Below are positions 1 to 20,068 of a DNA stretch of 64,000 bases, one piece after another (the stretch's first letter is position 1; each line of letters starts with the position of its first letter). The notes beneath the pieces were generated by a model that saw nothing but the letters and a program-made list of their open reading frames with translations, was not told where the DNA came from and made no database searches. Source of the DNA: Limnochordales bacterium (GTDB lineage Bacteria > Bacillota > Limnochordia > Limnochordales > DUMU01); assembly GCA_014896315.1 (NCBI GenBank), contig JADBKP010000001.1:201557-265556 (forward strand), read 5' to 3'. Position numbers and translations under genes: made by a program.

Positions 1-2466
1 AAGCGACCTGTGAGTGGAGATCTCCTGGATGTAGGGGCTTTGGTGATCAGAGCTCGTGAGTAGGACCAGCGAGTCTCTTGCTCTCGTGACGGCCACATAG
101 AAAAGCCGCCGCTCCTCATCCTCCACTTTAGCCAGTGTATCCCCGAAAAGACGGCAGTACTGCCAGTTTGGATGTATGAGGGGGAAGCACCGGTCCAGTG
201 CGTCCAAAACAATGACGGCGTCACATTCTTGGCCTTTGAAGCGGTGAACGGTCGACGCCGCGATCTTGTCCTCGAAAGCTTTAGGTAAGCACCGCTTGAT
301 ACGAGTCAACAACTCGTCAAGATCCCTGGGTTTGCCGCCAAGGGAGTTGGCGGGGTACCCGGGCCAGGAGACCTCGTTACGGCGCGCTAGCAAGACAACA
401 CTCTTCCCGCTGTCGAGGAAATGCCTGGCAAGACGCAGTACGGCGACCACCAAGGGGTCCCTGTGGTGGGCTTGCAACTCCAGCTCGGTGGGGGCGAAGT
501 CTTCGATCCTGTACAGAGCCACTGTCCCTTTCCCGCTCCTGCGTGCGACTGCGGACGTGCCCCTCCCGCGCATCAAGGCGTTACCCACGTCTACCACCGC
601 AGGTACCGAGCGGTAGTTAGCCGGCATATACAGCGTCGTGGTGTCCCGAAAGAGTCTTTGGAACTCCGAGAAGTAGCGCAAGTCTGACCCGGCGAACCCG
701 TTGATGGCCTGCCAATCATCTCCGACACAGAAAAACGACACACCGGGGTTCACCGACCGGATAGCCTCTATCAGCGCAAAGAACGCCTCCGAGAAATCCT
801 GAAACTCGTCAATCAGGATGTACCGGAGTCTTGCGACATTGCCGCGCTCCCTTCCACGATCACGAGTAAAGGCCGTGACTCCTGACCTGATCCGGTTCAC
901 CGCCCGCCATAGCAGGCCACTGAAGTCCTCTTTGCGGTCTCTGGCCAACAAGCGAAGATAATCGTCGTATATCTGGCTGGCCGCCTCCAAAAACAACTTT
1001 TCAGATCTGGAGCACGGTTTGTGTGCGGAGATCAGCCTTCTGAGCTCATCTGCACTGAGGTTACGCAACCGGCACCGACCAACAAACTGAGTAATCGCTT
1101 CTGTGAACCTATCTATGGCACGGCACTTTACTAATTCCCAAATTTCTTCTTCCGAAAGGCGCCTGTAGGAGATGCCCAACCTAGCTAGCTTGTTCAGCAG
1201 TGTTGACACGAACTGGTCGATCCCGACCTGTAGATCCCGTGGAAAGACCTCAATCAATTTCCACCCGGGTTTGCGAGCCCAGAACTTCCGCTTACTCTCA
1301 ATCGCCTCATCGTAGTCTGGATCGCCCTCAAGACCGAAGTACTCGATAATCACACCACGGTCGCGACCCGTAATAATAGTAAAGTCCGGCCTATAGGTTA
1401 TACCCTCCCACCGGATAGGACGCTCGTAGTGGTAATCGATCGCATGCTCAAAAAGAGCATTTGCTATCACTTTCTCGCCGAACGACCGGACGCGCTCGCC
1501 CCTCAGTGTCTCGCGGGGTAGCGCTCGACGATATTCAAGGAACTCCTTCATGGGGAGCTCGAAGCGCCCGTTGACGATGCGTTCCCAGTCCTCCCGGAAG
1601 TCCGCCAGCATGATCTCCCGAACAGTCGGGCGCAGGCTATCAGAGCGTATGTGTTCATCGATGATCTCCTGTATTTCTCGACCGAGGCCAAACTCGTCAT
1701 CGGGCCCTTTATCATAGAGGATGGACTCGTCGGGATGGACGATCGCATAGGCCAGGGCGTGGAATGTCATCACGTGGGGGATGGCTGCTCCCAACTTCTT
1801 TTCCAGCCTAGTGCGCATCTCCTCAGCAGCCTTGCGGTTTAACGCCAGCAAGAGGAGCTGGTCGGGGGAAACCCCGCAGTGCTGCTGCAGGAACACGGCT
1901 CGTGTGACCACCGCTGTCGTCTTGCCGCTACCCGCCCTGGCTACAACCTGCACGTCCCCAGTAACGGTAGCCACAGCAGCGGCCTGTTCGTCGTCCAACC
2001 TTACATCAAGTTGGCGGTCCGCCCACTCCCTGACAAACTCGGTCTTGAGCGATTTGTACTCGTCGGCCGTGATCAGGTTCTTGTCGGGATGTTTATCAAA
2101 GATCTCGTCAGCTGACAGGTAGCTAGACTCAAATGTCGCTCTGAGGGCCTTTAGGAGGTTTTCTCGTTTGACCTCCTGTTCACTTGGGTAGAAGGCCACA
2201 AACCCGGCCCTGTCGAAGTCAACCCTTGAAAACCTGGTCTCCTGCGTGCCGGCTTGCTCGAAGCGGATAAACACGCTATCAATATATCTTTCCTGTCCGG
2301 CATTGGTCGTTACGGTGACGACTCTGGTGATCACCCCCAGACCCCATTCGGGATGCTGCACTTGCCAGCCCCGGATGTTGTCCTCACGGCCCGACTGTTT
2401 TCGGGCTGCAGCGATCAGGTCGTCCAGTGACAACCGTCCCAGGCGGGTTGTCGGAAGTATCGACAT
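1..2466 (-). CDS. Superfamily-1 UvrD/Rep/helicase-IV-like DNA helicase (3' end runs off the window start)
   Basis: Not in the ORF track because no stop codon lies inside the window. My reverse-strand translation from the ATG at 2466 stays open to base 1 (~822 codons). Walker A 'VARAGSGKTTAV' (codon phase checked at 1920), motif II 'YILIDEFQDF' (phase checked at 810), 'VHRFKGQECDAV', 'RLFYVAVTRARD'. A ~170-aa non-helicase N-terminal region as in helicase-IV-type proteins. AGGGAAG upstream of the ATG. Confidence 0.85.
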   Translation of the reverse strand, partial: MSILPTTRLGRLSLDDLIAAARKQSGREDNIRGWQVQHPEWGLGVITRVVTVTTNAGQERYIDSVFIRFEQAGTQETRFSRVDFDRAGFVAFYPSEQEVKRENLLKALRATFESSYLSADEIFDKHPDKNLITADEYKSLKTEFVREWADRQLDVRLDDEQAAAVATVTGDVQVVARAGSGKTTAVVTRAVFLQQHCGVSPDQLLLLALNRKAAEEMRTRLEKKLGAAIPHVMTFHALAYAIVHPDESILYDKGPDDEFGLGREIQEIIDEHIRSDSLRPTVREIMLADFREDWERIVNGRFELPMKEFLEYRRALPRETLRGERVRSFGEKVIANALFEHAIDYHYERPIRWEGITYRPDFTIITGRDRGVIIEYFGLEGDPDYDEAIESKRKFWARKPGWKLIEVFPRDLQVGIDQFVSTLLNKLARLGISYRRLSEEEIWELVKCRAIDRFTEAITQFVGRCRLRNLSADELRRLISAHKPCSRSEKLFLEAASQIYDDYLRLLARDRKEDFSGLLWRAVNRIRSGVTAFTRDRGRERGNVARLRYILIDEFQDFSEAFFALIEAIRSVNPGVSFFCVGDDWQAINGFAGSDLRYFSEFQRLFRDTTTLYMPANYRSVPAVVDVGNALMRGRGTSAVARRSGKGTVALYRIEDFAPTELELQAHHRDPLVVAVLRLARHFLDSGKSVVLLARRNEVSWPGYPANSLGGKPRDLDELLTRIKRCLPKAFEDKIAASTVHRFKGQECDAVIVLDALDRCFPLIHPNWQYCRLFGDTLAKVEDEERRLFYVAVTRARDSLVLLTSSDHQSPYIQEISTHRSL

Positions 2467-2502
2467 GGCTTGCTTCCCTGCCTCGCGACGCGAGTCGCCT
2501 CA

Positions 2503-3777
2503 TTAGCCGTGCATTGACATGGATCGCAATATAGCTAGAATCCGCTCACTGGCGTGGCCGTCGCCGAAGGGGTTGTTGGCGCCCCCCGCATTGGCCATCT
2601 CCTCGTACCGGCGCCGATCGGTCAGCAGCGCGAGGGCTTCTTCCCGGATGCGGACCCGATCTGTGCCAACCAGGCGGGCAGTGCCCGCCTCCACTGCTTC
2701 TTGGCGCTCGGTCTCCTCCCGCAGAACCAGCACCGGTTTGCGCAGGGCAGGCGCTTCTTCCTGCACACCGCCCGAGTCAGACAGGACAAGCGTCGCTGCC
2801 TGCAACGCATGAACGAAATCCCTGTAGTCCAGGGGGTCCGTCAACTTCACTCGCGGGTGCGCTCCGAGGATGCGATTGGCAGCCTCTCGCACCACCGGAT
2901 TGCGGTGGCAAGGAAAGAGCACCCACACGTCGGGCAAAGCCTCAAGAATATCAAGGATGGCGTGGTAGACCTGTTCCAGAGGCTTGCCCCAGTTCTCCCG
3001 GCGATGGGTGGTGACGAGCAGCATCCGGGAAGCTCCCCCCGAGCCTAGGCCTGGGGCTAGGCCCGGGCCTGGGCCTGGGCCTGGGGCTAGGCCTGAGCCT
3101 GAACCTGGGCCTGAGCCTGAGCCTGAGCCCGCTGCCGATGACGCCGCCTTTGCGGACTTCGCGGTCAGTTCAGACGCGGCGGCAGCCTCAACGCCAGCTG
3201 AACTTGCCTCGCCGTGCAGCGCCAGGACCGCATAAAGCGCATCGATGGCAGTGTTACCAGTTACGTGAACTGTCTCCGCGGGAACTCCCTCCGCCAGGAG
3301 ATTGGCAGCGGCCCTCTTCGTGGGGGCAAAATGAACTGCCGCAAGCCGCGTGATGAGCCGGCGGTTGGCCTCTTCCGGAAAGGGAGAAGCGATGGAGCGA
3401 GTACGCAATCCGGCCTCCACATGGGCCACCGGGACGTGAGCGTAAAAGCCGGCCAGAGCCCCCGCAAAAGCCGTGGTCGTATCACCCTGCACGATTACCC
3501 AGTCCGGCTTTTCCTTAGCAAGCACCGGCTCCAAACCCAGCAACACACGGGACGTCAGGCTGCAGAGGCTCTGCTGAGGCCGCATTACGTTCAGGTCATA
3601 GTCGGGACGTATGTCAAAAAGGTTCAAAGCCTGGTCCAGCATCTCGCGGTGCTGTGCCGTGGCCACTACGACAGGCTCAAAGTCGCTGCTCTTCTTCATT
3701 GCGATGATTACTGGCGCGAGCTTGATCGCCTCAGGTCGAGTGCCGACAACAATCAGGCAGCGGAGCGTGTTACTCAT
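2503..3777 (-). CDS. UDP-N-acetylglucosamine 2-epimerase paralog (WecB/MnaA family) with a Gly/Ser/Pro-rich inter-domain insertion
   Basis: 424-aa ORF. 'LIVVGTRPEAIKLAPV', 'HVEAGLRT' and 'DSGGVQEEAP' are 2-epimerase signatures. About 60 extra low-complexity residues ('SAAGSGSGSGPGSGSGLAPGPGPGPGLAPGLGSGG') sit between the two Rossmann halves, compared with the 362-aa copy at 26668..27756. Confidence 0.9.
   Translation of the reverse strand: MSNTLRCLIVVGTRPEAIKLAPVIIAMKKSSDFEPVVVATAQHREMLDQALNLFDIRPDYDLNVMRPQQSLCSLTSRVLLGLEPVLAKEKPDWVIVQGDTTTAFAGALAGFYAHVPVAHVEAGLRTRSIASPFPEEANRRLITRLAAVHFAPTKRAAANLLAEGVPAETVHVTGNTAIDALYAVLALHGEASSAGVEAAAASELTAKSAKAASSAAGSGSGSGPGSGSGLAPGPGPGPGLAPGLGSGGASRMLLVTTHRRENWGKPLEQVYHAILDILEALPDVWVLFPCHRNPVVREAANRILGAHPRVKLTDPLDYRDFVHALQAATLVLSDSGGVQEEAPALRKPVLVLREETERQEAVEAGTARLVGTDRVRIREEALALLTDRRRYEEMANAGGANNPFGDGHASERILAILRSMSMHG
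3041..3130. repeat. Imperfect hexanucleotide microsatellite (GCCTGG/GCCTGA/GCCTAG units) encoding the epimerase linker
   Basis: Read directly: gagcctaggcctggggctaggcccgggcctgggcctgggcctggggctaggcctgagcctgaacctgggcctgagcctgagcctgagccc. Confidence 0.9.
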
Positions 3778-4054
3778 CGTACCACCGATCTCTTGCTGTG
3801 AACTGCTGAAGTGCTACAACTGCCAGGCCAGCGCATGCTCCTGCAGTCTGGATATCAACCGGTCTGGACTTACCGCTCCACTCCGGGCAAATACGTGTGC
3901 GCAACGCCGTCGGCTAAGCACACCAGAACAGGGTCTTGCGCTCTTCCCGACCGATCCAAGAATGGGGAGCACTGTCCCGTCAATGGTGCCCTGGACCGAT
4001 TCACGCCGGGTCAGCTCGGCGACGTCGACAATAAGCACCGCTTACCGCTCCCTC

Positions 4055-5122
4055 TCATCCAAGGTCATCGAATAATGGAATCTGTTCGATCTCCGCCGGT
4101 TGTGTATGTTCCGCCGAGAATTCCATCATCGCTTGCAGGAGAGACTGGTGCTGTCCTTCATCGGCTACCTTTATTAGCCAAACCTGGTCTTGCCCTACAT
4201 ATGTCAGCGCTTCTGGAATTATCTGGTTTGCCTCTTGGGCCAGATTCCTGATAAAGTGCTTGCATAGCCGCCTCATATGCACGGCGGAATCGCGGTTCTC
4301 CCAGAATTCATACACGCCAAGTGTTGCATCTCTTAAAAGGTCCTCACAGCTAATTCGAATCTCGCAGGGCGGGGTTGAACGGCCAACCACTCTGATGAGT
4401 GACGCAAGTATCCTCTCCAGTAGTATCCTTCGGCACAGGTTCCTCTCAGCCGGCGACTGCTCTACATCCGGGTCATACGGAATGAAGTAAAGGGGTCGCG
4501 GATCTGTATCAGGCCAAACGCGGAGAAAGAAATGTCCCCCCGGTTCAAAACCAAAGAAGCTCGCACTGCGAGAATCGAAGACGAGAGCGATGCGCTCCTG
4601 CTCGACCTTCAGACCGAGGGTGGCCCAATCTCCCGCGGGACATCCGATGCTCCGCAGTTCTGCCTGTAACGCACCAAGCGTTTCAGTGAAAAGGCTTCTT
4701 TGAGGTTCCGGCAGCACCGTAACCAGCATCGAACCCTTCACTCGTTCACGGGCCTCTCCTAAAACCTCTGCTAGCCTTGGGCCGGATATCGCCAAGAGAG
4801 TGTGCATCTGGTCGCGGTTCGATGACTCCGAACCGAAAGAAGACTTCTTGCACTCAGTAATTGCAAACTTTCCCTGGCCCTCCAGCACCACGTCGGGTCT
4901 AACCCGCTCCTTGAAAGCAACACCTGCACGTATCATGGCAAGCCTCAAGTCCGGAGGAGCGGCCAGTAACGGGGCGATAGCGTAGACGGAAAAGCCTTGT
5001 TCGTAAAGAAGCGGTCGTATACCGAGTGCCTGAAAGTCTCGCGGCAGTGGTTGCACGAGCCAAAGCATCGCGTTGAGTTGGAATATCGGATCCTCCACCA
5101 GCTCAGCCAAGTCCTGCCTCAT
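4055..5122 (-). CDS. Hypothetical protein (355 aa), possible PD-(D/E)xK nuclease fold
   Basis: The track gives 4055..5269, but the first 49 codons overlap the upstream gene. The ATG at 5122 follows GAGGAGGTG and overlaps the upstream stop by 20 nt. 'RVRPDVVLEGQGKFAITECKKSSFG' resembles a D..ExK restriction-endonuclease-like core. Nothing else is recognisable. Confidence 0.65.
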   Translation of the reverse strand: MRQDLAELVEDPIFQLNAMLWLVQPLPRDFQALGIRPLLYEQGFSVYAIAPLLAAPPDLRLAMIRAGVAFKERVRPDVVLEGQGKFAITECKKSSFGSESSNRDQMHTLLAISGPRLAEVLGEARERVKGSMLVTVLPEPQRSLFTETLGALQAELRSIGCPAGDWATLGLKVEQERIALVFDSRSASFFGFEPGGHFFLRVWPDTDPRPLYFIPYDPDVEQSPAERNLCRRILLERILASLIRVVGRSTPPCEIRISCEDLLRDATLGVYEFWENRDSAVHMRRLCKHFIRNLAQEANQIIPEALTYVGQDQVWLIKVADEGQHQSLLQAMMEFSAEHTQPAEIEQIPLFDDLG

Positions 5123-6407
5123 ATGGCACCTCCTCGACCGAGCGCTGCACAAGGTCGATGTAAGGCTCGTTTCCGATGTATGCCGTCGCCCCGGGGTCGA
5201 GATATCGCTGGACGTTTCGTACAAGACGATGCACTGTGTTTCCGCAAGTGCCGCTCGGTACGATGGCAATACATCCTGTTGTAGTCAGCTCCAGCCACAG
5301 AGGCTGCCACAAATGGCGGTCGAGTCCGTAGACCTGCACCTTTTCCGGTCCCAGATGGATTGGGTGGCCCCAAAGCCTGAAACGGTTCGGTTTGCTTCCA
5401 AAGGTCGTCGAGATCCAGCGGGAAAACACCCGCCGATCAAGCGGTTCGCGGAATCGAATTACAACGGGTGCGCCTACAATCCTCTGTAACTGCCCTGGTG
5501 CATTGATCGATTCGCGGACCTCGTACCACGTCTGCTCTTCGGTCTTTCGCAACAACTTTTCATATACCTGAGAAACGTAAATGACGTGAGCTCGGTGGTC
5601 CCTGAAACTGCTACTCTTGTTTGTTACATGCCCGTCATCATAAAAATCGTGCCCTCCACGGCCTACAGGGGAGGGAAACCTGAGCTGACTGATCGCATAG
5701 AGCGGTGAATAGAGCGCTTGCAATTTAGAGAGACGCTCCTTGATTACCCCGACCCGATCCACTAGCCGGAACGTTGCGGAGCGTCGTTCTCTAATGGATT
5801 CAAGATCTTCTTCGTCCTCCCCCTCGTGGTCTGACTCGAACTCGTCTTCGTCGGGCTCCTCTAATAGGTCATCCTCAGCTGGTAGACCATCAGGAGTCCG
5901 TTGTCCGAACGTTCCCGGGTCAAACACGCTCTCAAACGCGCATCCTATGCGAGTGAATCGGGCAGGGTGGGTCGTGGTCTGGACTACGTTCCACAAAACA
6001 TGGAAAGTGAGCCCGCTCAGCCAAACATGGTCCAGTTCGGGTGTTGAAAGCACCAGCGCCCGAGCCCATTTTTCAAGGGAGTCCGCCTCCATCGGGCTGT
6101 ACAGTGCCACCACTCGAGATCCGACGGGTTCCAAGAAACCTATGTCACCCTCCTTAGGGTCGGTAACTCGAAACAGAGACTCTTCCAACCGCGTAACACC
6201 CAGACCGCGCCGCTCGAGCAGCAATTTTATCGTCTCGGACGTGACCGGTCTGGATCCGTCGAGTACCTCGAGCAGCCACGTCTTCACCACAGGGCGCTTA
6301 AGTTTACTACGCTCTCGAAGTTCCTCCATTCGCTCGATGGAGTACCCGTCAAAAAAGCGAACCATGTCTCGCTGAGTTGCAATCTTTGTCAGGTCGAGGG
6401 CTGTCAA
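5103..6407 (-). CDS. Hypothetical protein (434 aa) with acidic linker
   Basis: Long ORF translationally coupled to the downstream gene. Contains a D/E-rich linker 'PAEDDLLEEPDEDEFESDHEGEDEEDLES'. 'FRDHRAHV' fits an Rx4H (HEPN-like) pattern, but this is weak evidence. I cannot assign a family. Confidence 0.6.
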   Translation of the reverse strand: MTALDLTKIATQRDMVRFFDGYSIERMEELRERSKLKRPVVKTWLLEVLDGSRPVTSETIKLLLERRGLGVTRLEESLFRVTDPKEGDIGFLEPVGSRVVALYSPMEADSLEKWARALVLSTPELDHVWLSGLTFHVLWNVVQTTTHPARFTRIGCAFESVFDPGTFGQRTPDGLPAEDDLLEEPDEDEFESDHEGEDEEDLESIRERRSATFRLVDRVGVIKERLSKLQALYSPLYAISQLRFPSPVGRGGHDFYDDGHVTNKSSSFRDHRAHVIYVSQVYEKLLRKTEEQTWYEVRESINAPGQLQRIVGAPVVIRFREPLDRRVFSRWISTTFGSKPNRFRLWGHPIHLGPEKVQVYGLDRHLWQPLWLELTTTGCIAIVPSGTCGNTVHRLVRNVQRYLDPGATAYIGNEPYIDLVQRSVEEVPYEAGLG

Positions 6408-6479
6408 GGGCAGACCCCCTCCCTTCTCGCCCGAACAGGGCGTTACCCCACCAGACCGGGCATGCTTTGGATTCCTCTA

Positions 6480-7065
6480 GAACACCGCCGGCCCTTCGGA
6501 ACTCGTTCGACCATAGTGTAACCCCCCGGGCCTCTCGGCTGCCATAAATTGCGACATTGGTTCCATGGAGAGCCACACCTTACTCGGGGACTTTGTGAGA
6601 TCATTTCTGGTCATATGATACTCGAGCAGTGTAACGCTATCATAACTGCCCCTTCTCCCGACTGAGCTTTGCTTCTCCAGGTAGGCCAGGAAAGCTCCGA
6701 GGTTCAGATTCAGCGGTGAACTCAGGGTTGTGGAAGTTGCCGACATCTGCCTCCCGTTCCTTCGGCGCGATATGTTTGGAACACTCGGCCGGCATCTCCA
6801 AGTATCTCTCGTGGCGGATAAGCCCAAGACCACGGACTCGCCGGGTGACGACCCGCACACTAACCCGCAACTGGCTCACCCAGCGCAGCCACCCACCTGC
6901 CCATGTCGGGCCTGTGTAGATGGGGCTGGCTTCTCCCGCAAGCCAGACACCGGCTATTTCGGGCTTGACGTCCACGGTTTAGGCAAGACCCTCTTGCCCC
7001 CGCTGTACACGGCGCAGTGCCCAATCGAGCGTTTCGGGGCGGATGCGCACTTCAAGGGCAGGCAT
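6480..7065 (-). pseudogene. Decayed ImmA/IrrE-HTH-like gene (remnant of a paralog of 16392..17540)
   Basis: The reverse-strand ATG at 7065 gives 'MPALEVRIRPETLDWALRRVQ', matching 'MPTLEVPINPETLAWALRRAR' of the intact gene, then a stop. Other frames retain 'SQLRVSVRV' (~'QRLRVSFGQ'), 'GNFHNPEFTAE' (~'GNFDHN..FTNAV') and 'LNLNLGAFLAYLEKQSS' (~'LNISLGAFVAYLEKRSS'). The HEXXH core is missing. Confidence 0.7.
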
Positions 7066-7482
7066 AGCGTTGACACCTCGGGCAAGCAAGAAAGCTCAGA
7101 AATCCGAGTCTAACTCTAGAACGATTCTTCTTGACTGACCCTCGGATCACTTCGCGCCCCGAACCTCAACAGGCACCGGAAAACGGAGCCCCACGAAGAC
7201 TCCCATGATCTACCCGCCAGGAAACCGTTCAGCCGCGGCGGCTGGCCTCTCACGTCAGTGCTCCAGGACCCCACGGGCGTCCCACAAGCTTTTGGGGCAG
7301 CAGCGTGACCTCGTTCGCGCTGCCCCTACATGCCTCCATGCCAGTAGCCCACTACCGGCTGACGGCAAACCTGAGCGCTCTTGCCAGTGCAGCCTCGCGT
7401 ACGATAAGGAAAGGCCTCCGCCGCTCTCGTTAGAAGTTTCGGCTTTACGGAAGTGGCTACACGCGCTATCCCGAGAGACTCC

Positions 7483-8238
7483 TCAAACAGCCACTTCGGA
7501 GCGCAACTTGACCTCAAGAGCTCCTCTTACCCAGCCATGCCCTGTTGACACCTTACCTCCTATTGAGCAGATGGATTTTAGCGGTTCCACTACGTATTTG
7601 TCGATTAATCGGTCGACGTGCCGTTCCTCGTGTGAGAGCTCCCGCAGCCACGAATCCGTGTTCGGCTCCAGGTGCTCACGTTCCCGGCCCAACGTCCATT
7701 TCCGCTGCTGGTCCTCTATGAGAATCCGCAGCACACCCCTGAACGTCGTCCCGGGAGGCATGACCTCAACGTTTCGGTTAAACCCGCGGTGAACGGCACT
7801 CGTGGCGCGGTCACGAGCCGCGGCATACGCAGGCTCGGGGTCCTTATCTGCCTCGAGGTAAGGTACCATGACGAAGCCCGGAAGACTCTGACATCCCAGG
7901 AAGTAGCAGGCAGGACATATTGGTCCTTTGCCATACTCGCAGGCACCACCCCTATAGACGCCTGCCCGGACTAACGTATGCTCATCAGCGCTTAACCGAC
8001 TGAACGGAAACGGAATGCACGGTCTGAAAACCGGATTACGTGCAGCTTGCTGAATGAGCAAACGCTCTAGTTGAGACCGCAACGCACCTTTTACCGATGT
8101 ACCAGGAATCACGGCCCTACCACCGATTCTTGCCACCGGACTATGGAACTCTGACATCGGATCCGGGGGGCCCCCCACGAAGAGGGGCTGATCGATAGTA
8201 AGCCATAGGTCGTACTCCCTGAACACCCTATCAGGCAT
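7483..8238 (-). CDS. cas7: Cas7-type RAMP protein (Csm3/Cmr4/Csf2-like backbone subunit)
   Basis: The track ORF is 7483..8349. The ATG at 8238 has GGAGG 9 nt upstream and overlaps the upstream stop (ATGCCTGA). 'RAVIPGTSVKGALRSQLE', 'ICPACYFLGC', 'ARDRATSAVHRGFNRNVEVMPPGTTFRG' and the glycine-rich 'IGGKVSTGHGW' follow the order of the canonical Cas7 RAMP motifs. Confidence 0.8.
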   Translation of the reverse strand: MPDRVFREYDLWLTIDQPLFVGGPPDPMSEFHSPVARIGGRAVIPGTSVKGALRSQLERLLIQQAARNPVFRPCIPFPFSRLSADEHTLVRAGVYRGGACEYGKGPICPACYFLGCQSLPGFVMVPYLEADKDPEPAYAAARDRATSAVHRGFNRNVEVMPPGTTFRGVLRILIEDQQRKWTLGREREHLEPNTDSWLRELSHEERHVDRLIDKYVVEPLKSICSIGGKVSTGHGWVRGALEVKLRSEVAV

Positions 8239-8536
8239 GATCCGAAACCTCCTCGCTGTAGTAATTCCGAATAGCTTCGAGCTTGGCCAGCACGTACCTA
8301 CCCTCAGCCCTCGTCGGGAGCTTCGAGACCAGATGCACAACCTGTACAAGTATCGTCAGGTCCTGAAGCCTTTCCTCATATAACTCATCTTCCCGCTTGC
8401 CCACCACAAATGCCTCTGCAGCTTCCGGTCCGTGAATCTCGTACAGCCGGGCTAAGTCACTAAGCAAGCCCCGGACCGCGAGTCCGCCCTTCTCGTCCGA
8501 GTTCAACTTTCTTACAAGGTCAATCAGGTCAGGCAT
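8231..8536 (-). CDS. Small helical protein in the position of a Cas11 small subunit
   Basis: The track ORF is 8231..8593. The ATG at 8536 has GGAAGG 5 nt upstream and lies 26 nt after the upstream stop. The protein is 101 aa with Leu/Glu/Arg-rich, helix-like composition. The assignment rests on size and position only, not on a sequence motif. Confidence 0.45.
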   Translation of the reverse strand: MPDLIDLVRKLNSDEKGGLAVRGLLSDLARLYEIHGPEAAEAFVVGKREDELYEERLQDLTILVQVVHLVSKLPTRAEGRYVLAKLEAIRNYYSEEVSDHA

Positions 8537-8562
8537 GACTACCTTCCATGCAGACTCCACCC

Positions 8563-9204
8563 CTAGATCCCTCCTTCGGGATGAACCAAACACCGGGGAC
8601 CGCGCACGACGCTGCCTTCAAACAGTGCGCGCACGTAAACACCTCCGACTCTATTTTCGTCCGGTTCAAATAGGTACCCCCAGACAGGCATAGCTACCTC
8701 AACTATTCCAAACTGTTCCAAAACATCTCCCCGTTCGGGCAACCGCACAAGCAGCGAACCCCAGCAACATTCGGCTTGATCCTCGGTCACCGGGCCAACA
8801 CGTTCCATGGTGCAGTATCCCAACCCCTTGCTTCGCAGGGCACCAACTTGAAGCGAGAAATGCTGAGGAAGGCAGGCTGCCCTGGGACCCGTGACAAAGG
8901 CTCGTGCTTTAACGTCCACCAAAAATGCATACTCAAGCGGCAAATAGGCTGAGCCCAACGCCCTATTACGTGTAGAAGCAGCCTGCCAGTACGGACCGGA
9001 GTATTCCTCAATTATTGCCACACCAGCAACTCCCTGTCCGAACTCTGCTGTCAGCGCGCCAGTAAGCTGCGAATACGGGATGGACCGTTCCAGGGTCCCG
9101 CGGAAGGTTCCCTTTTTTAGCCTCTCACCCAGGGAAAGCGTTTGAGCGTTAAGGATGTATTCTATAAGAATCGCCACCACCCCCCCGCACGCGGCTGCTT
9201 TCAC
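8563..9204 (-). CDS. Cas5-type RAMP protein (Csm4/Cmr3/Csf3-like), start uncertain
   Basis: The GTG at 9204 overlaps the upstream gene by 56 nt; GTGs at 9180 and 9177 are alternatives. 'RSIPYSQLTGALTAEFG' resembles the Cas5 N-terminal strand. A glycine-rich loop is present at 'LRSKGLGYC'. Confidence 0.55.
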   Translation of the reverse strand: MKAAACGGVVAILIEYILNAQTLSLGERLKKGTFRGTLERSIPYSQLTGALTAEFGQGVAGVAIIEEYSGPYWQAASTRNRALGSAYLPLEYAFLVDVKARAFVTGPRAACLPQHFSLQVGALRSKGLGYCTMERVGPVTEDQAECCWGSLLVRLPERGDVLEQFGIVEVAMPVWGYLFEPDENRVGGVYVRALFEGSVVRGPRCLVHPEGGI

Positions 9205-11377
9205 CGCTAAAAGTCAATTCGAGTAACGAAAGAACCTGGACAGGTCCGAAAAGTCCTTTTCTGATACCGTCGTCGAAGCGGTTGACCACCTCTTGCGCAG
9301 TTGCTCGGATAGGACCCGGCTCCTTGCTGTCTGCCTTGACAACCGCCCAAGCAAGATCAGGCAAGCCTGTCCGGCGCTCCACCTCAGCCAACTCGTGCAG
9401 GTAGCGCCGTACTCGTGGAGGCCGATCATCCATCCATTTGCCCATTCCGGTGATCAACGCTCGCAACCCAGGGAGGTCGGTTTCGAATCTAAAGGACCTG
9501 ATACCTCGTACAGCAACCGCATGCGAAGGGTCGGAAACGTGCCGCCAGTCCACGTAGAACGGCCATTTGGCAGGGCCGTAGCTGACTCCCAGTCTGACTG
9601 CCTTCGCTGCTTCCGCTAAGAGGCCAGACCGCCAATGGTGCTCAAGTAGGACCGGAAAGTGCTGCTTCATCAGGTCAACGTAGCTCCTGAGCAACTGCAG
9701 GAGCTGCCGCTTTTCTGCGAGTTCGGCAATCCAGACGCCTTCGGCGAGTTCCACTACATGGCTGAAGATTCGCCGTACGGCTTCACCGAGCGCCGTAATC
9801 GTCCGCGCGAACTCGTCGTGCATGTCCCGAAGAATTCCCAGCGGCCGGAATTGTGACAGCACCGGTATGAGTTTCTCGTTCTGCTTAGGGGCCATCCCTA
9901 CGAAGAGCACTCCATCAATCACCCTTTGCCCGTACAGAGCTTCGACTAGAAGCTCTGCCCGGCGTGGATCCAGAGAAGCACAGATCCAGCACGCCAGGCT
10001 GTCGCGCTCCTCCCACTGCCTCAGATCAGCCTGCCGGAAACCACGATCTCGCAGTTCCCAGCAGCGGTTGCACAGGTTCTCGGTTACCGTCGCCACCCTC
10101 TGCGGGATTCCACGCCGCACCTGGCACACATCACAGAGCGGGGGTTCAATCTCGACTGTGGAGTCAACCTCAGGCGGGTAGAACGAACTATACGAGTCAG
10201 GTGTAGTAGTCCGCGGTACGGGCGCATCAGACTCGAGTTCCCGGAGGGCCCTCAGCTTCTTATCCAGTCGCCCGACTTCTGGACCGACCTCACGCTTCCG
10301 CCCAGGGGGAGTCCCAGGATGGTCAAGCAACGCCTTAATGTGATCTCGACGCTTTTGTAGCTTTGCTGACGCCGCTCGGATCAGCTCGCGGTGGACATCC
10401 CCCGAACGGGGAGACCGCCACAGCTGCAGGGAGCTAGGCGGAGCTTCACGTGTGTGTGCTTCGGCGTAAAACCCGCGATCTGTCAGAGGTTTCAGAATGC
10501 CTCGCAGGCTCAGCGCCGAGCTGGGCAAGAAGAGATACAGGGTCGTTCCTGTGCGAAATAGCAGGTACGGCGACTCAAAGTCGTCGAGTGCATCACGCAA
10601 CTCTCGGAGGACTGCTACATCCATAGCCCGCGCAAAGGACTGATGGAATTTGACAGTCACACGCGCTATGCGTAACTTCCATCTCTTGGAGGCGTCCTCG
10701 TGGTTTCGCACCTCCACGCCGTCAAGGGCCAAGGAGAGACCTTCGTGGCTGGTCCGTACCTCAACATGTTTCTCCAGTGCCCGGTAGTATTGGCCCGTGA
10801 GTGTGCAGTGCGCCCACAAGGAGGTTACCTGGTTCGGCCAGGCTTCGTCTTCGCCCCGAGCACGGAAGTTGTCTGCTAGACTCTCTAACACTGCGCTAGC
10901 CGAACTCTTCTCCCACAGCGTGAACAACTCTTCTAAGTCTGCAGGCGTCTTGATCGGCTCGGGATCTTCATGCGCAGGTTCATTCCTCCAAACCGCAAAC
11001 ACACTCTTGCTCCAAAGATTTCTCCACTCGTTCGCCTGGGGACCCTCGTAAACTGCTCTGACAGTTGTCGCGGCAAGGTTGTCGGCTAAGCACACTAGGA
11101 ATAGGGCCTTACGCTCTTCTGGACCGATCCAATGGTGAGGAGCAGGCCGGGCAAGATCCCTCACCCAGTCACTCCAATCGGCCAGTTTCATGTGATATAT
11201 GACTGATGCCCAAGTTAAATCTCGCTCGACTATCTCTGGGATCAGAATTCCAGGCATAAACTTTCCTGAGCGGTAAAAACTATGTTTTTGGCCGCGTAGA
11301 CAGTCTGCCGCCAGCTTCCCGAGGTCATGTAACTCGGGGATGATCATGCTTGTCACCTCGCTATTCTCTACAGCCAC
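9149..11377 (-). CDS. cas10: Cas10-like large subunit with N-terminal HD domain and degenerate cyclase palm
   Basis: 742 aa; the GTG at 11377 follows GGGGAG. HD motif 'IIPELHDLGKLA' plus 'LVCLADNLAAT'. 'VTSLWAHCTLTGQYYRAL' resembles the Cas10 palm-1 entry. Cys pairs 'CDVCQ' and 'CNRCW' are present. 'LACWICASLDPRRAELL' resembles the first palm-2 Asp strand. Where GGDD is expected I read 'VELAEGVWIAE'. The only GGD is 'GGGGDS', 7 residues from the C-terminus. Confidence 0.75.
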   Translation of the reverse strand: MAVENSEVTSMIIPELHDLGKLAADCLRGQKHSFYRSGKFMPGILIPEIVERDLTWASVIYHMKLADWSDWVRDLARPAPHHWIGPEERKALFLVCLADNLAATTVRAVYEGPQANEWRNLWSKSVFAVWRNEPAHEDPEPIKTPADLEELFTLWEKSSASAVLESLADNFRARGEDEAWPNQVTSLWAHCTLTGQYYRALEKHVEVRTSHEGLSLALDGVEVRNHEDASKRWKLRIARVTVKFHQSFARAMDVAVLRELRDALDDFESPYLLFRTGTTLYLFLPSSALSLRGILKPLTDRGFYAEAHTREAPPSSLQLWRSPRSGDVHRELIRAASAKLQKRRDHIKALLDHPGTPPGRKREVGPEVGRLDKKLRALRELESDAPVPRTTTPDSYSSFYPPEVDSTVEIEPPLCDVCQVRRGIPQRVATVTENLCNRCWELRDRGFRQADLRQWEERDSLACWICASLDPRRAELLVEALYGQRVIDGVLFVGMAPKQNEKLIPVLSQFRPLGILRDMHDEFARTITALGEAVRRIFSHVVELAEGVWIAELAEKRQLLQLLRSYVDLMKQHFPVLLEHHWRSGLLAEAAKAVRLGVSYGPAKWPFYVDWRHVSDPSHAVAVRGIRSFRFETDLPGLRALITGMGKWMDDRPPRVRRYLHELAEVERRTGLPDLAWAVVKADSKEPGPIRATAQEVVNRFDDGIRKGLFGPVQVLSLLELTFSGESSRVRGGGGDSYRIHP

Positions 11378-11399
11378 TGCTGCTCCCCGGTTCCATTGC

Positions 11400-11430
11400 G
11401 TATATATGCACCGTTTTTAAAAGTTTAAAT
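11400..11430 (-). promoter_or_regulatory. Candidate sigma-A-type promoter of the cas10-like operon
   Basis: The minus strand reads TTTAAA-17 nt-TATATA in the only AT-rich patch between the IS3 end and the GTG. The match to consensus is weak. Confidence 0.25.
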
Positions 11431-11503
11431 GCTTTTGCCCAGTAGGAACTTGACGACAAGTGCCTGGCTAGCCCCCTAACCAGAGTGGACAGGTAGCCTT
11501 TGA

Positions 11504-11839
11504 TTGGGTAGAGTCCTGTTGGGAGGATTGACAGTGACTCGGACCCGATACGAACCAGACTTCAAGCTGCGGGTAGTCCGCGAAGCGTTGGAGACACGCA
11601 ATGCATCCCTGGTCGCACGACGCCACAATCTCGCTCCTAACCTGGTAGCGCGTTGGGTTCGGCAGTATGGCGCTGATGGGGAGGCCGCGTTTTCTGCCAA
11701 GCGTCGCCGTTCGCAAGTGGAGACCCCCGAGTTGAGGGACATCCAGCGGGAAAACGAGCAGCTCAAGAAGCTACTGGGCGAGAAAGACCTCGAGATCGCC
11801 ATTCTCCGTGACCTTCTAAAAAAAACAGCCCGACCCTGA
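11504..11839 (+). CDS. IS3-family transposase OrfA (HTH / leucine-zipper part)
   Basis: 'YEPDFKLRVVREALE', 'LVARWVRQY' and the coiled-coil tail 'ENEQLKKLLGEKDLEIAILRDLLKK' are typical of IS3 OrfA. Confidence 0.85.
   Translation: MGRVLLGGLTVTRTRYEPDFKLRVVREALETRNASLVARRHNLAPNLVARWVRQYGADGEAAFSAKRRRSQVETPELRDIQRENEQLKKLLGEKDLEIAILRDLLKKTARP
11818..11825 (+). promoter_or_regulatory. Programmed -1 ribosomal frameshift site (A8 run) linking orfA to orfB
   Basis: The A8 run lies at the end of orfA. orfA is in phase 2 and orfB in phase 1, which is a -1 relationship, as in IS3-family OrfAB fusions. Confidence 0.7.
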
Positions 11840-11853
11840 GGGATCGGCTGGAG

Positions 11854-12186
11854 GTGGCGGAGAAATGGATTCAAAGGGGGTACCCCATCGCCGTGGTTCT
11901 TCGCATAGTGGGGGTCGCCCGGTCGACGTATTATGCTCATCGTCATCCCAAACGGCCCAAGAGCCCACGAAAAGGGGGAAGGCCGAAGCCAGGGTATTCG
12001 TGGACCACGGCAGGAAAGCGAGTACCCGATGAGCAAATCCAAGAGTGGCTATGCGAACTCATCGCTGGGGAAGAGGCCTGCTATGGCTACCGCAAGCTGA
12101 CTGTGGTGCTCAGGCGCCGGTACGGGCTGATAATCAATCACAAGAAGGTCTATCGGCTTTGCCGCGAACTGCGGTTGCTGCGGCCG
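11854..12186 (+). pseudogene. IS3-family transposase OrfB, 5' portion (interrupted by IS21 insertion)
   Basis: 'HKKVYRLCRELRLLRP' is followed directly by IS21 terminal sequence. The reading frame resumes at 14417. Confidence 0.8.
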
Positions 12187-12292
12187 TGTCAACGCCGGCT
12201 TGAAATTGACCCACTACGCGCCGGTTTGGAATTGACCCACCCCCGAGAAAGCAGTCCTACAGTGCGTAGCACCAAGGGACGCCGGACACCGG

Positions 12293-13087
12293 TTACTGTT
12301 TCTCCGCTCTCACCCCCTCTGTGGATGGTGGCGCTATGCCGAAGATGCCGGCCCGCTTCTTTTCCCGTAGCCGGTAGCTTTCACCCCGGATGTTGAGCAC
12401 GTGGCTGTGGTGAAGCAACCGATCGAGAATGGCAGTGGCAATGACCGGATCCCCCAGCACCTCGCCCCACTCACCGAAGCCTTTGTTCGACGTGAGGATG
12501 ATGCTGCCGCGCTCGTACCGCGCGGAGATGAGCGCAAACAGGGCGGTTGCAGCCGACCGATCGTAAGGCCAGACACCGAATTCATCGATGATAAGCACCT
12601 TAGGCGCCAGATAAACCCGCATGCGGCGGTCAAGACGGTGCTCTTCCTGGGCCCGGCGCAGATCTTCGAGCAGGTCGTATGCCCGAGCGAAGTAGACCGC
12701 GTGACCGGCCTCGATCGCCTTGATACCCAAAGCGACCGCCAGATGGGTCTTGCCCACTCCGGGTGGGCCCAGCAGGAGGATGTTGGCGCTCTCGGCCACA
12801 AACGCCAGGGAGGCCAGCTCGCGCACCTGACGCTCATCGATGGAAGGCTGGAAGCTGAAGTCGAACTGTTCCAATGTCCGGTGAAAGGGCAGGTGCGCCA
12901 GGCGAGTTCTGGTACGCAAGTAGCGCTCCCGGCGTGCAGGTGCTTCGATCTCCATAAGGTCAGCAAGGAAGTCAGCGTAAGGCAGTTCCTTTTGGGCCGC
13001 TACTTCCAGACGGCTTTCCAGTACGGACGCTGCTTGTGCCAGCCCCAGTTGCTCCAAGTACGAGCGGGCCTTCTCCAGCGCAATCAT
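12293..13087 (-). CDS. istB: IS21-family helper ATPase IstB
   Basis: 264 aa with Walker A 'LLLGPPGVGKTHLAVALG' and 'LLIIDEFG'. It overlaps the istA end, as is typical. Confidence 0.9.
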   Translation of the reverse strand: MIALEKARSYLEQLGLAQAASVLESRLEVAAQKELPYADFLADLMEIEAPARRERYLRTRTRLAHLPFHRTLEQFDFSFQPSIDERQVRELASLAFVAESANILLLGPPGVGKTHLAVALGIKAIEAGHAVYFARAYDLLEDLRRAQEEHRLDRRMRVYLAPKVLIIDEFGVWPYDRSAATALFALISARYERGSIILTSNKGFGEWGEVLGDPVIATAILDRLLHHSHVLNIRGESYRLREKKRAGIFGIAPPSTEGVRAEKQ

Positions 13088-14374
13088 TCGTTTCTCACCG
13101 TCCCAATCAGCGACTCATAAACCGCCAGGGGACGCTGCGCCACCTCGACCGAGCTCACCTGGAAAGCCACCGGTTCCCGCCGGCGATTGTCGCCGGCTGT
13201 CGGCACCTCAGCCCATTGAGCGGGATGGGTGAATCGCTGCCCGGGTCGGGTAGCCCTGGGGTACACGGCCAACAGGCGGTCGCCTGTCCACAACTGGATG
13301 ATCTCAGCCCCCGGTTGCACCTCGACTCTTTCCCCGGGCTTCCACGGCCAGGGTACACCGTACCAGGACCCGTCCCACTGTACGTATCCATCTCGTCCCA
13401 CTGCCCGACTCTCCCGCAGGAAAGGTTGCAGGCGTTCCCGACCGGGTAAGGGCTGCAAATGATGCCGCTCAACCGCCAGCCTGTCTATCGGTCGCTCACG
13501 GGTGGTACCGTGGATACGGACGTTTGCCACTGTATCGCTCCAGAGCAGTGCTTGCCGGTTCAAGTCGTCGAGGTCCGTGAAACGAATACCCGGCCAGAAG
13601 TTTCCCTTGACGTACTTGATTCCGCTTTCCACACGTCCCTTGGTCTGCGGTCTGTAAGGATGGCAGAGCTGTACGTTGAATCCCATCCGCAGCGAGAAGT
13701 CCAGAAAGCGAGGGTTCCAGACCGGCCGACCGGCATCGTCTGTTTCCAGCGCCACCAGTTTCGTTCGGTCGTAGAGGCACTTCTCCGGTACGCCGCCAAT
13801 GGCAGCGCATGAAGGTAGGAGTATCAGCCCGGTTAACAAACTCCACGTAGATAGCTCTTGACCAGCTCAGTACCATGGTGAAGTACCACTTTCGCTACAC
13901 CGTGCCGTGTGGGAACACCACCGCACAACTGCCGAAATCGACCTGAGCTTACTCACCCGGGCGGGTTTCGAAACGAACGGTCACTTTGGGCTGGTGTTGA
14001 TGCCGCAATGGTTGGACGAAGTCCTTGAGTATCGTATAGCCGCCCGTATATCCGCAGGCGCGGAGTTCCCGCAGGAGAACCTTGCAGTTCGTCACTCCCT
14101 CCGCCCATCGTTGCATGATAAACTCCTTGTAGGGATCCAGCTTCGAGGGTCTCTTCTGTCGAGGAGCTGGCCTGGGCACTTCTGGGGCCCTCAAATACTT
14201 GCGAACCGTGTTACGCGAGATTCCCAAGGTCCTGGCGATGGCTCGGATGGAGTACCCCTCGCCTTTGAATTCATAGAGCTTTTTCACTTTCCCGCCTCCC
14301 AGCACGACAGTTTCGACACCTCCGACTCGTGGTGGAATCGGCGGTGTCTTTCGCTGGGGGCGGGTCATTTTCAT
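13084..14374 (-). pseudogene. istA: IS21-family transposase IstA, inactivated
   Basis: The N-terminal HTH ORF (13949..14374) ends at a TAA inside the conserved 'PGE*AQVDFG'. A second in-frame TAG follows ('PHGTV*'). A frameshift near 13800 joins to the C-terminal ORF 13084..13839 ('GGVPEKCLYDRTKLV', 'YRPQTKGRVE'). Confidence 0.8.
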
Positions 14375-14416
14375 TCCGGCGCTACTGGGTCAGTTTACAT
14401 CCGGCGCTGACAGCCG

Positions 14417-15004
14417 CAGCGTCCCAAGAAACCCCACCATCCCCGGCGGCTGGCTCGTAACCGGCTGGTTACTGGGCCTAACCAGCTATGGGAAGTCGAC
14501 GTCAAATACGGGTACATAGCAGGGGAGGAGCGGTTCTTCTTCGTGATGCCTATCCTGGACGTGTACGACCGCTCGGTGGTGGAGTTTCACATTGGCCTGA
14601 CTTGTCAGGCGGAAGAGGCGGCCAACGCGCTCAGAGAAGCAGTGCGCCGACGCAAACCGGAGTGGGAGGACACCAAACCAGTGGTCCGAACCGACAAAGG
14701 GCCACAATTCATTAGCCAGCTGTTTGAGGAGACGTGTGAGCAATTAGGGCTGGAACACGAACGGATACCGAATGCAACCCCCAACAAGAACGCCCACATC
14801 GAAGCGTTCAACGGGATCATGGAGGAGGAATGCCTAGCCCGCAACGAATTCCATACCTTTGCGGAAGCATATCTGACAGTGATCGACTTCATCGACTTCT
14901 ACAACGAGCGTAGGTTACACTCCGCCCTGGGGTATCGTAGCCCTCAGGAGTTCCGGGAAGCATACCGGCAGAATCATACGCGACTCGCCCCGGTCAAGGC
15001 ATAG
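14417..15004 (+). pseudogene. IS3-family transposase OrfB, 3' (DDE/rve) portion
   Basis: My translation from 14417 reads 'QRPKKPHHPRRLARNRLVTGPNQLWEVDVKYGYIAGEERFFFVMPILDVYDRSVVEF', then 'RTDKGPQFIS' and 'NAHIEAFNGIMEEE'. It is in frame with 11854..12186 once the IS21 is removed. Confidence 0.8.
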
Positions 15005-15039
15005 CTGTCCATCGATAGGGGGTCGGCGCGGGTCTGCAT

Positions 15040-15180
15040 GTGCTGCGTATGTTCCGTTGAGAATCGCATCATGACTTGCAGGACAGATTGATGCTGTCGG
15101 GCATCACCACCCTTATTATTAGCCAAACCTGTTCCTCCCGCATATATGTCAGCGCATCTGGCATTGTTGACGTTCACCTG
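15040..15180 (-). pseudogene. 3'-terminal fragment of a second copy of the 355-aa gene (4055..5122)
   Basis: By-eye DNA alignment of 15040-15178 with 4098-4230. Shared blocks are GTATGTTCCG, CATCAT, CTTGCAGGA, TTATTAGCCAAACCTG and ATATGTCAGCGC. At the protein level, 'HQSVLQVMMRFSTEHTQ' matches 'HQSLLQAMMEFSAEHTQ'. Confidence 0.7.
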
Positions 15181-15218
15181 TGTCAACGGACAGCGACTTT
15201 GTCCACCTCGTGTTGACA
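15181..15218. repeat. 38-bp nested palindrome with IS21-like termini (TGTCAACG...GTGTTGACA)
   Basis: It begins exactly where homology to the 355-aa gene stops. Its first 8 nt are identical to the IS21 left end at 12187. An inner hairpin GGACAGCGACTTTGTCC is present. Confidence 0.5.
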
Positions 15219-15439: not shown

Positions 15440-15746
15440 CCCTAGCCCCGTATCTGGCGGGAGAACGAGCAGCTCAAGAAGCTTCTGGACGAGAAGACCT
15501 CGAGATCGCTATTCTCCGTCACCTGTGGAGACAAACAACCGCGCACTGAGGAATCCTCTGGGGGTCGCGGAGAAATGGATTCGAAGGAGGTACCCGATCG
15601 CCCTGGTTCTTCGCACGGTGGGGGTCACCCGGTCGAAGCACTAGGCTTACAGTAAGCCAAAGCGTCGTCGTCATGCCTATCCTGGACGTGTACGACCGTT
15701 CGGTGATCGAGTTCCACATTGGGCTGAGTGTCAGCGCGAGGAGGCG
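15440..15746 (+). mobile_element. Internally deleted remnant of a second IS3-family copy
   Basis: The remnant retains three stretches. CTAGCCCC is like the left IR. GAGAACGAGCAGCTCAAGAAGCT..GACCTCGAGATCGC..GGAGAAATGGATTC..GGTTCTTCGCA aligns with 11748-11930. ATGCCTATCCTGGACGTGTACGACCG..GAGTTCCACATTGG aligns with 14543-14595. The A8 slippery run and most of orfB are missing. Confidence 0.7.
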
Positions 15747-19887: not shown

Positions 19888-20068
19888 CGTACCTACGACT
19901 CATTGGGCCAGGGCATGCTGCTATAGCCTCGACCCCGACCAGTCTGCGCCTCCAGCACCACTGTCGGTAAGTACTTGTACGGGAATCTTGTCCAGCGCCT
20001 GCCTAATAAGTCAAACACCGTTAGAAACAGTGTAGCGACACGCATCACTATGCGCCTGAAGTTGAACC

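Follow-up and report, generated by a model that had tools for sequence, protein, structure and literature searches.

A translationally coupled MJECL33-family and PD-(D/E)xK gene pair of a Limnochordales bacterium is a candidate two-gene defence cassette

Analysis of a 64,000-nucleotide (nt) stretch of contig JADBKP010000001.1 from a Limnochordales metagenome-assembled genome (hereafter the window, i.e., the whole 64 kb) showed that two adjacent minus-strand genes, here designated A and B, are a coupled two-gene unit, and the sequence comparisons described below indicate that both are real genes under selection. A belongs to a functionally uncharacterised Pfam family and B is a predicted nuclease. 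On balance, and with modest confidence, the pair is considered an autonomous, horizontally transferred two-gene cassette, spanning approximately 2.4 kb and most likely directed against foreign DNA, which would make it a candidate defence system. Its distribution was sporadic and horizontal, extending over many phyla, plasmids, integrative and conjugative elements (ICEs), and restriction-type operons. An independent two-gene defence system was one of two roles proposed in a first-pass annotation of this DNA, and it fits the restriction-modification (R-M), DISARM, and Hachiman neighbours as well as the plasmid and ICE locations found here.

Gene A (5103–6407, minus strand) encodes an MJECL33-family (Pfam PF25924) protein of 434 amino acids (aa) and has a TTG start codon, preceded by the site AAGGGAGGGGG (6415–6425, minus). 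Gene B (4055–5122, minus; ATG at 5122–5120) encodes 355 aa, in which a predicted N-terminal PD-(D/E)xK domain is followed by an alpha/beta domain and, at the C-terminal end, by a disordered tail. The coupling region (5103–5135, minus) comprises the strong ribosome-binding site GAGGAGGTG (5127–5135), spaced 4 nt from the ATG of B (5120–5122), and the TGA stop of A at 5105–5103, so that the two genes overlap by 20 nt. Both the overlap and the strong site had been noted in the first-pass annotation as signs of co-translation and were confirmed, as was the pairing itself in related loci (see below). The start codons chosen for A and B both agree with the N-termini of aligned homologues; a maximal open reading frame (ORF) of 404 aa for B, beginning at an upstream TTG, was unsupported by these N-termini and was discarded. 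The exact products of the two genes have database entries, IMX00_00860 and IMX00_00855, in which they are called hypothetical proteins. Compared to the closest relative, locus L090, the nucleotide identity was 78.7% and was confined to positions 6468–4041 of the window (2.43 kb; blastn). The aligned segment takes in 61 nt in front of A and ends 14 nt after the stop of B, with unrelated flanks on either side. The 61-nt leader (6408–6468, minus) moves with the cassette.

In a large protein database, 572 homologues of A and 156 of B were found, with 40–80% identity among the matches listed, located on the same contigs. An exhaustive profile search with A gave 552 representative clusters at 50% identity, in which full-length members measured approximately 380–430 aa and no domain fusions were seen. 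For neighbourhood analysis, a scan of 185,579 species genomes with two conserved peptide patterns yielded 78 loci; these species genomes, contigs of individual homologues, and the window made up a set of 84 non-redundant sequences (83 besides the window; individual loci are given L numbers). By our own ORF calls, A was found in 79 of the 84 sequences and was followed directly, at +1 and on the same strand, by B in 63 of these 79, the exceptions being mostly contig ends or visibly decayed copies of B. The A/B junction was overlapping or abutting in most of the homologous loci. Carriers belonged to the Verrucomicrobiota, Acidobacteriota, Planctomycetota, Aminicenantes, Omnitrophota, Nitrospirota, Chloroflexota, Actinomycetota, Bacillota, and Candidate Phyla Radiation (CPR), among others. 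In L028, L071, L076, and L089, A was intact and B was reduced to short remnants just after A, which suggests that B is the more easily lost partner and possibly the costly one. The shortness of many carrier contigs was also considered as a sign of a multi-copy repeat, and this was rejected as it is ordinary for metagenomes.

The assignment of B rests on a core that was conserved throughout the family. The segment 'PDVVLEG..GKFAITECKK' (residues 76–93), in which the first-pass annotation had seen a D-ExK nuclease core, contains P76-D77...E90-C91-K92 (codons at 4847–4897, minus), and in an alignment of 65 family members, reaching down to roughly 30% identity, P76 was present in 63 and an acidic residue (D/E) at 77, E90, K92, and Q105 in all 65, which bore out the suggestion family-wide. 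The AlphaFold2 (AF2) model of B (predicted local distance difference test score, pLDDT, 87.9) placed these residues in an alpha-beta-beta-beta-alpha-beta core formed by helix 12–23, strands 45–49, 78–82, and 85–91, helix 102–112, and strand 130–138, with strand 78–82 following the PD and strand 85–91 carrying the ExK. In the same model, the core is followed by a C-terminal alpha/beta domain (approximately residues 224–340), whose order of helices and strands may be winged-helix-like, and by a disordered end (residues 342–355, pLDDT <50). Foldseek matches were weak and consistently of the PD-(D/E)xK type, including SfsA (probability 0.85), Can2, Cdn1, YaeQ, AF1548, R2 endonuclease, and OkrAI. 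B gave no match in Pfam-A, NCBIfam 20.0, PADLOC-DB 2.0, or PHROGs, and sequence and profile searches against the PDB returned noise only. B was thus accepted as a predicted nuclease and assigned to the PD-(D/E)xK nucleases at superfamily level. With other members of this superfamily, such as SfsA and the nuclease domains of Can2 and Cdn1, it shares the P-D...E-x-K...Q set of residues and the order of the core elements, and these are its best, albeit weak, fold matches, whereas no significant sequence or profile match to the described families was obtained. It differs from them in having an obligate partner gene, an L-F-D/E tail, and an additional domain of the alpha/beta type at the C-terminal side; members of the close clade also share a conserved DPRPLYFIPYDPD loop.

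The disordered C-terminus of B (tail peptide EIEQIPLFDDLG) carries the short linear motif Q-x-x-L-F (Q347-I-P-L-F351, codons at 4070–4084, minus). Members of the close clade carry [Q/E]-P-x-L-F-[D/E], the copy in the window reads QIPLF, and in other clades the tails read QLSLF, QLDLF, QLELF, QLVLF, QLMLF, QLSLDL, or QLTLDL. When the tails were matched strictly, to Q..[LM][FLM] or Q[LM].L.[LF], 22 of the 65 fitted, compared to 2.3 expected (maximum 7) in controls consisting of shuffled tails or other windows of the same proteins. The consensus for binding to the bacterial beta clamp is QL[SD]LF or QLxLxL. Judged by this likeness, the tail of B resembles a beta-clamp-binding motif and may dock B to the beta sliding clamp or, equally, to A.

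Protein A was considered in the first-pass annotation, like B, to belong to no known family. This agreed with the lack of matches for A in Pfam-A, NCBIfam 20.0, and PADLOC-DB 2.0, and did not hold entirely, since A itself and all 120 of its listed homologues carry the label PF25924 'MJECL33'. This membership is taken from precomputed database hits; the local Pfam-A copy gave no family and presumably lacks that model. MJECL33 is a functionally uncharacterised Pfam family named after an uncharacterised ORF of a Methanocaldococcus jannaschii extrachromosomal element, and neither PF25924/MJECL33 nor a TBP-like fold with an anti-phage role was mentioned in the literature searched. Among PHROGs, A matched only phrog_22469, of unknown function (5e-9), and no match was obtained in a phage collection (tblastn). 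The best match of A in the PDB, PH0734 (E 0.013, A residues 32–127), was treated as noise and not trusted.

In an alignment of 72 members of the A family, T387, C388, G389, N390, T391, H393, and R394 were each present in all 72, forming the signature T387-C-G-N-T-V-H-R394 (codons at 5226–5249, minus) at a strand-to-helix junction, and D363 and H365 were likewise invariant. The C-x5-R spacing of this signature is reminiscent of the phosphate-binding loops of cysteine phosphatases. The poly-acidic linker that the first-pass annotation had pointed out is present at residues 163–208 (codons at 5784–5921, minus; AF2 pLDDT 25–42) and proved to be a feature of all 72 members, with a median length of 35 aa and 41% D+E; in the window it measures 46 residues. 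A second suggestion, that FRDHRAH (residues 268–274; codons at 5586–5606, minus) is a HEPN-like R-x4-H motif, had to be abandoned. The string is present and invariant in the close clade of A; family-wide, only H271 (66/72) and R272 (71/72) were conserved, with R269 in 33 and H274 in 30 of the 72 members. This poor retention, together with the non-helical, alpha/beta fold, excludes a HEPN reading of A, and no HEPN-domain proteins were found among its fold matches except low-probability RnlA rows.

The AF2 model of A (pLDDT 76.7; predicted template modelling score, pTM, 0.79) was mixed alpha/beta with approximately 20 strands, and contained two canonical units of strand-helix-four strands-helix (residues 41–121 and 315–402) and a similar unit at 209–292. 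This secondary-structure order (S-H-S-S-S-S-H) is like that of TBP-like-fold proteins (TBP, CENP-L, and the RnlA N-terminal domains), and the top Foldseek matches pointed in the same direction, namely to CENP-L, TBP, RnlA N-terminal domains, KA1 domains, and viral TBPs, all of them non-significant. TBP has no counterpart to the conserved residues of A such as TCGNTxHR, and no internal repeat was detected among the three putative TBP-like units (hhalign, probability <3%). Because of the non-significant matches and the lack of a detectable repeat, the TBP-like fold is treated as a lead and not as a result. The Foldseek comparison of AF2 models, which the first-pass annotation had advised, thus placed B weakly among the PD-(D/E)xK proteins and gave only a weak TBP-like signal for A.

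The neighbourhoods of A-B elsewhere connected the pair with restriction and mobility. In the 83 other loci, the commonest same-strand neighbours were Methyltransferase, ResIII, Helicase_C, DrmA, DrmMI, and MTase_III, i.e., DNA methyltransferases and superfamily 2 (SF2) helicases. A methyltransferase or helicase of these partner families was present in 28 of the 83, and A-B was part of a type III-like R-M or class 1 DISARM operon in approximately 17. In approximately 10 loci (L018, L019, L020, L027, L032, L033, L039, L044, L051, and L053), A-B shared a tight same-strand operon with genes for a Res-like helicase and a type III-like methyltransferase of the beta class, in the order Res-A-B-Mod or Mod-A-B-...-Res, and these loci fell in two subclades of A that are only approximately 36% identical to each other. 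In L018 (8701–13311), the mod gene was split exactly around A-B into ORFs of 425 aa (N-terminal, catalytic) and 267 aa (C-terminal), which correspond to residues ~2–348 (upstream of A-B) and ~341–622 (downstream) of the 628-aa mod product of L032. An N-terminal mod half was located upstream of A-B in L019 (145–3907) and a C-terminal half downstream in L033 (153–3430), both at contig ends; in L027 and L032 the same mod gene was intact and flanked A-B on a single side. A class 1 DISARM system with the order DrmD-DrmMI-A-B-DrmA-DrmB-DrmC contained the pair in six or seven loci of Acidimicrobiia. In L009 and L010, a PLD-SNF2 helicase and an Eco57I-type methyltransferase immediately preceded A-B. 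The L010 locus (1–14250) is an island of approximately 13 kb in an AcrB-family transporter gene, with AcrB fragments at both ends, and comprises the PLD-SNF2 helicase, a HigB/HigA-like pair, the Eco57I-type methyltransferase, A-B, and then helix-turn-helix (HTH) and ImmA genes.

Further copies were found on mobile elements. One A-B locus was located in a conjugative element with a type IV secretion system, and two were located on Bacillaceae megaplasmids, L096 (Bacillus cereus pBFR_2, 8052–11234) and L097 (Metabacillus pB218, 8057–11204). On both megaplasmids, A-B is directly preceded by an unusually long (~240 aa) PemK/MazF-family gene, and A and B are annotated as hypothetical proteins in RefSeq, with the pBFR_2 pair listed as BF33_RS28745/28740; on pBFR_2, the Hachiman genes hamA and hamB are located 1–2 kb downstream of A-B.

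The operons with Res, Mod, and DISARM genes could also indicate that A-B is an accessory of methylation-based restriction (type III-like R-M, class 1 DISARM, or PLD-SNF2/methyltransferase systems) that depends on these partners, either as an extra nuclease or as a guard triggered upon inhibition of the R-M system, like PrrC, which is nested inside a type I R-M operon; the window copy would then be an orphan. The recurrence of tight Res/Mod operons in two distant A subclades, the constant DISARM order, the helicase-methyltransferase pairs of L009 and L010, and the mod genes split around A-B all argue for such dependence, and a functional tie to R-M or DISARM, e.g., in a guard role, is a serious rival. 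It was nevertheless judged unlikely. About two thirds of the loci contained no methyltransferase or helicase of the partner families within 10 kb, and in the window no methyltransferase, SNF2, DrmA, or Res-like ORF was found in the entire 64 kb. The Res-like helicases flanking A-B have their own C-terminal PD..ExK domain, and A-B was therefore rejected as the nuclease missing from these helicases. The DISARM cases all come from one bacterial family and may represent a single event. Moreover, unrelated defence genes are nested in the same operons, a Ppl-like ATPase in L033 (3453–6161; PADLOC 7e-52) and a PDC-M41B/PDC-M30B candidate in L044 (9003–9770; PADLOC 2e-120), which suggests an insertion hotspot, as for Hma, a helicase/methyltransferase operon in which independent defence systems (Septu, PARIS, and Ppl) are nested (PMC11232893). 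A-B is likewise located between res and mod or between drmMI and drmA, beside other nested genes; it is unrelated in sequence to Septu, PARIS, Ppl, and PrrC, and a guard function of A-B is hypothetical. Its nesting in type III-like R-M and DISARM operons was not described in the literature searched. Taken together, the PD..ExK domains of the helicases, the other nested defence genes, and the Hma precedent favour an autonomous cassette that lodges in such operons.

As such a cassette, A and B would form a complex in which B acts as the DNA-cleaving effector and is licensed by A, which could either regulate B upon sensing a substrate or some other signal, or contribute a catalytic activity of its own through its C-x5-R-like loop. 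The acidic linker of A may be an autoinhibitory DNA mimic that masks a nucleic-acid-binding surface until activation, and the Q-x-x-L-F tail of B could tether the complex to DNA-loaded clamps or dock B onto A. The most detailed version, a clamp-tethered B nuclease licensed by an enzyme-like, TBP-fold A (with a phosphate-binding C-x5-R-type loop and a DNA-mimic linker) and serving as a second-line guard in type III-like R-M and DISARM operons, is offered as a tentative proposal that is rather doubtful in its entirety.

Compactness and sharp homology limits, insertion within other operons and even between two mod halves, the order of an upstream inhibitor and a downstream toxin with translational coupling, the decay of B with retention of A in the four loci named above, and extra partial A-B copies (in the window, L059, and L047/L086) would also be expected of a selfish element, either an addiction module with B as toxin and A as antidote or a homing-type mobility cassette. 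We consider this improbable: no terminal repeats, recombinase, or transposase moved along with the pair, A and B are far larger than typical type II toxin-antitoxin partners, and A is the more conserved protein, with enzyme-like invariant residues. Addiction and defence roles are, in addition, compatible. A-B as a transposon was rejected on similar grounds, since no transposase or recombinase moves with the cassette and the flanks of its nearest relative are unrelated.

Several observations weigh against a defence role. Neither A nor B matched any of the 5027 PADLOC models (E ≤ 0.1), and Foldseek gave no match at E ≤ 0.001 for either protein, the best for A having an E value of 0.015, with template modelling (TM) scores of 0.23–0.31. 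A exceeded B in conservation (mean column identity of 67 vs. 52%), and its enzyme-like invariant residues are unusual for a mere sensor. The enrichment of neighbours was derived from 83 loci with home-made ORF calls and without a formal background model, and many A-B loci sit among housekeeping genes. In L003 (3656–12323), A-B starts 14 nt after the dnaE2 stop, in a cluster of LexA, ImuB-like (IMS), PDDEXK_3, and DnaE2 genes, which suggests possible SOS-linked expression of A-B in that genome, and this position, together with the clamp-motif-like tail of B, also fits a role in DNA repair.

Such a role would make A-B a nuclease pair of DNA repair or replication, recruited by the beta clamp and not devoted to immunity. 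NucS/EndoMS, a mismatch nuclease of the PD-(D/E)xK superfamily with a C-terminal clamp-binding tail, would be its model, and B shares with it the superfamily and a clamp-motif-like C-terminal peptide. The roughly ten-fold enrichment of Q-x-x-L-F/Q-L-x-L-x-L in B tails over the controls, the dnaE2 locus, and the high, enzyme-like conservation of A are in line with this. B showed, however, no sequence or fold match to NucS/EndoMS, is larger, and has a partner gene and an accessory-type distribution. The pair was sparse and patchy (78 loci among the 185,579 species genomes in the two-pattern scan), it was located on megaplasmids, in ICEs, and in R-M and DISARM operons, B was often pseudogenised, and the motif glutamine was present in only about one third of B tails. 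A repair function was hence given only a small chance of being correct, and a cassette acting against foreign DNA is retained as the preferred reading.

If A-B is a defence system, the immune repertoire would gain a family that occurs in many phyla, comprises 552 clusters at 50% identity, and is made up of two uncharacterised components. Small nuclease-centred defence modules are of a familiar kind; both protein families of this one are uncharacterised and absent from PADLOC-DB 2.0. The presence of A-B inside type III-like R-M and class 1 DISARM operons would offer a way into the layering or mutual guarding of immune modules, and a clamp-tethered defence nuclease would represent a new mode of targeting replicating foreign DNA. 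Because cultured carriers exist (Bacillus cereus S2-8 with pBFR_2 and Metabacillus sp. B2-18 with pB218), the hypothesis is directly testable.

The second role proposed in the first-pass annotation was that of ancillary effectors of the nearby cyclase-dead, Cas10-like module. This module was identified as a type III-F effector set consisting of Cas10f (9149–11377, minus; PADLOC 1.6e-44), Cas5f (8563–9204, minus; PADLOC Cas5_IIIf 9e-41), Cas11f (8231–8593, minus; PADLOC 4e-5), and Cas7f (7483–8349, minus; PADLOC Cas7_IIIf 1.7e-41). Proximity on the same strand, a junction of B followed by cas10f that occurs twice in the window (as B' remnant/insertion sequence (IS)/cas10f and as B/cas10f' remnant), and the nuclease domains of Can2 and Cdn1 among the weak fold matches of B are what such a link would predict. 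The neighbourhood data largely refuted it. No relatives of Cas10f, Cas5f, Cas11f, or Cas7f were found in the 83 other non-redundant A loci, so that co-occurrence of A-B with Cas10-like genes, which the first-pass annotation had thought worth looking for, was not seen. Conversely, no A-B was found on the contigs of three of four other Cas10f homologues (85, 57, and 31% identity). In the 85% relative, an HD-domain gene precedes cas10f, and similarity to the DNA of the window extends no further than 20 nt upstream of cas10f; in the 31% relative (L093), an unrelated 385-aa gene takes this position; the contig of the 57% relative (L092) starts 46 nt before cas10f, which limits the upstream view. 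Cas10f carries H17-D18 as its N-terminal HD motif and lacks GGDD, and is therefore not expected to produce a cyclic-nucleotide signal; III-F systems have been reported to be devoid of effectors and of cyclase motifs (PMC11229360). Neither A nor B gave a CARF or SAVED match in Pfam, NCBIfam, or PADLOC. Furthermore, cas6 is missing from the module, in contrast to the related loci L092 and L093, which show the order cas10f-cas5f-cas11f-cas7f-cas6; a search of the 64-kb window for CRISPR arrays gave none; and an IS element is located directly in front of cas10f. The module therefore looks orphaned or decaying, and impaired. A role of A-B as effectors of the III-F module is thus very unlikely, and the impression of the pair as a type III-F accessory is corrected; A-B and the III-F genes are not functionally tied in the window, both being passengers of a duplicated, decaying defence island.

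This island measures approximately 15 kb and has a UDP-GlcNAc 2-epimerase gene at either end (2505–3783 and 18673–19893, both minus), the two copies being 85–88% identical at the nucleotide level. Along the minus strand, epimerase-2 is followed by HTH-ImmA, DUF4411, IS fragments, B' remnant, and IS3::IS21, and then by cas10f-cas5f-cas11f-cas7f, ImmA' remnant, A-B, cas10f' remnant, and epimerase-1. An intact gene for a 400-aa fusion of HTH and ImmA/IrrE (Peptidase_M78) is located at 16392–17594 (minus) and is overlapped by that of a 197-aa DUF4411 protein (15842–16435, minus), and the two look like a toxin-antitoxin-type or regulatory pair. The decayed ImmA gene that had been noticed between the Cas module and A-B is real: positions 6663–7089 (minus), between cas7f and A, contain N- and C-terminal pieces of an HTH-ImmA/IrrE protein that match the product of 16392–17594 (tblastn). 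The truncated second copy of B, first placed at 15040–15180, was likewise recovered, within a remnant of the C-terminal ~70 aa at 15007–15218 (minus; tblastn and blastn) that is cut off by the IS3::IS21 insertion and has 46% aa identity to residues 308–353 of B and 78% nt identity over 122 nt. Immediately downstream of B, the 5' end of a second cas10f remains at 3879–3993 (minus), corresponding to Cas10f residues 5–109 (tblastn) and with 81% nt identity to 11073–11144. From the recurrence of the order ImmA...B-cas10f, the island can be recognised as a tandem pair of diverged copies of a single unit (ImmA, A-B, and III-F) that decayed reciprocally, the first having retained ImmA, DUF4411, and the cas genes and the second A-B. 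This reciprocal decay accounts for the truncated second B without a functional link, and the local linkage of A-B and III-F is attributed to a lineage-specific tandem duplication of the island.

The insertion within the island consists of an IS3-family element (~11440–15004, plus), with orfA at 11504–11839 and orfB at 11854–12396 and 14543–15004, and, inside it, an IS21-family element on the minus strand, with istB at 12293–13087 and istA pieces at 13084–13839 and 13949–14374; the family names were derived from reading the translations and not from profile libraries. Further IS fragments were present at 15457–15746. The upstream copy of the epimerase gene was broken into more than one frame, and the intact gene contained a tandem repeat of the hexamer GCCTGG (14.5 copies, 3041–3129), which adds a stretch rich in Gly, Ser, Pro, and Ala to the central part of the enzyme. 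A third, distant epimerase paralogue was located at 26686–27756, and a 570-nt direct repeat with 89% identity was located at 17821–18390 and 22365–22934.

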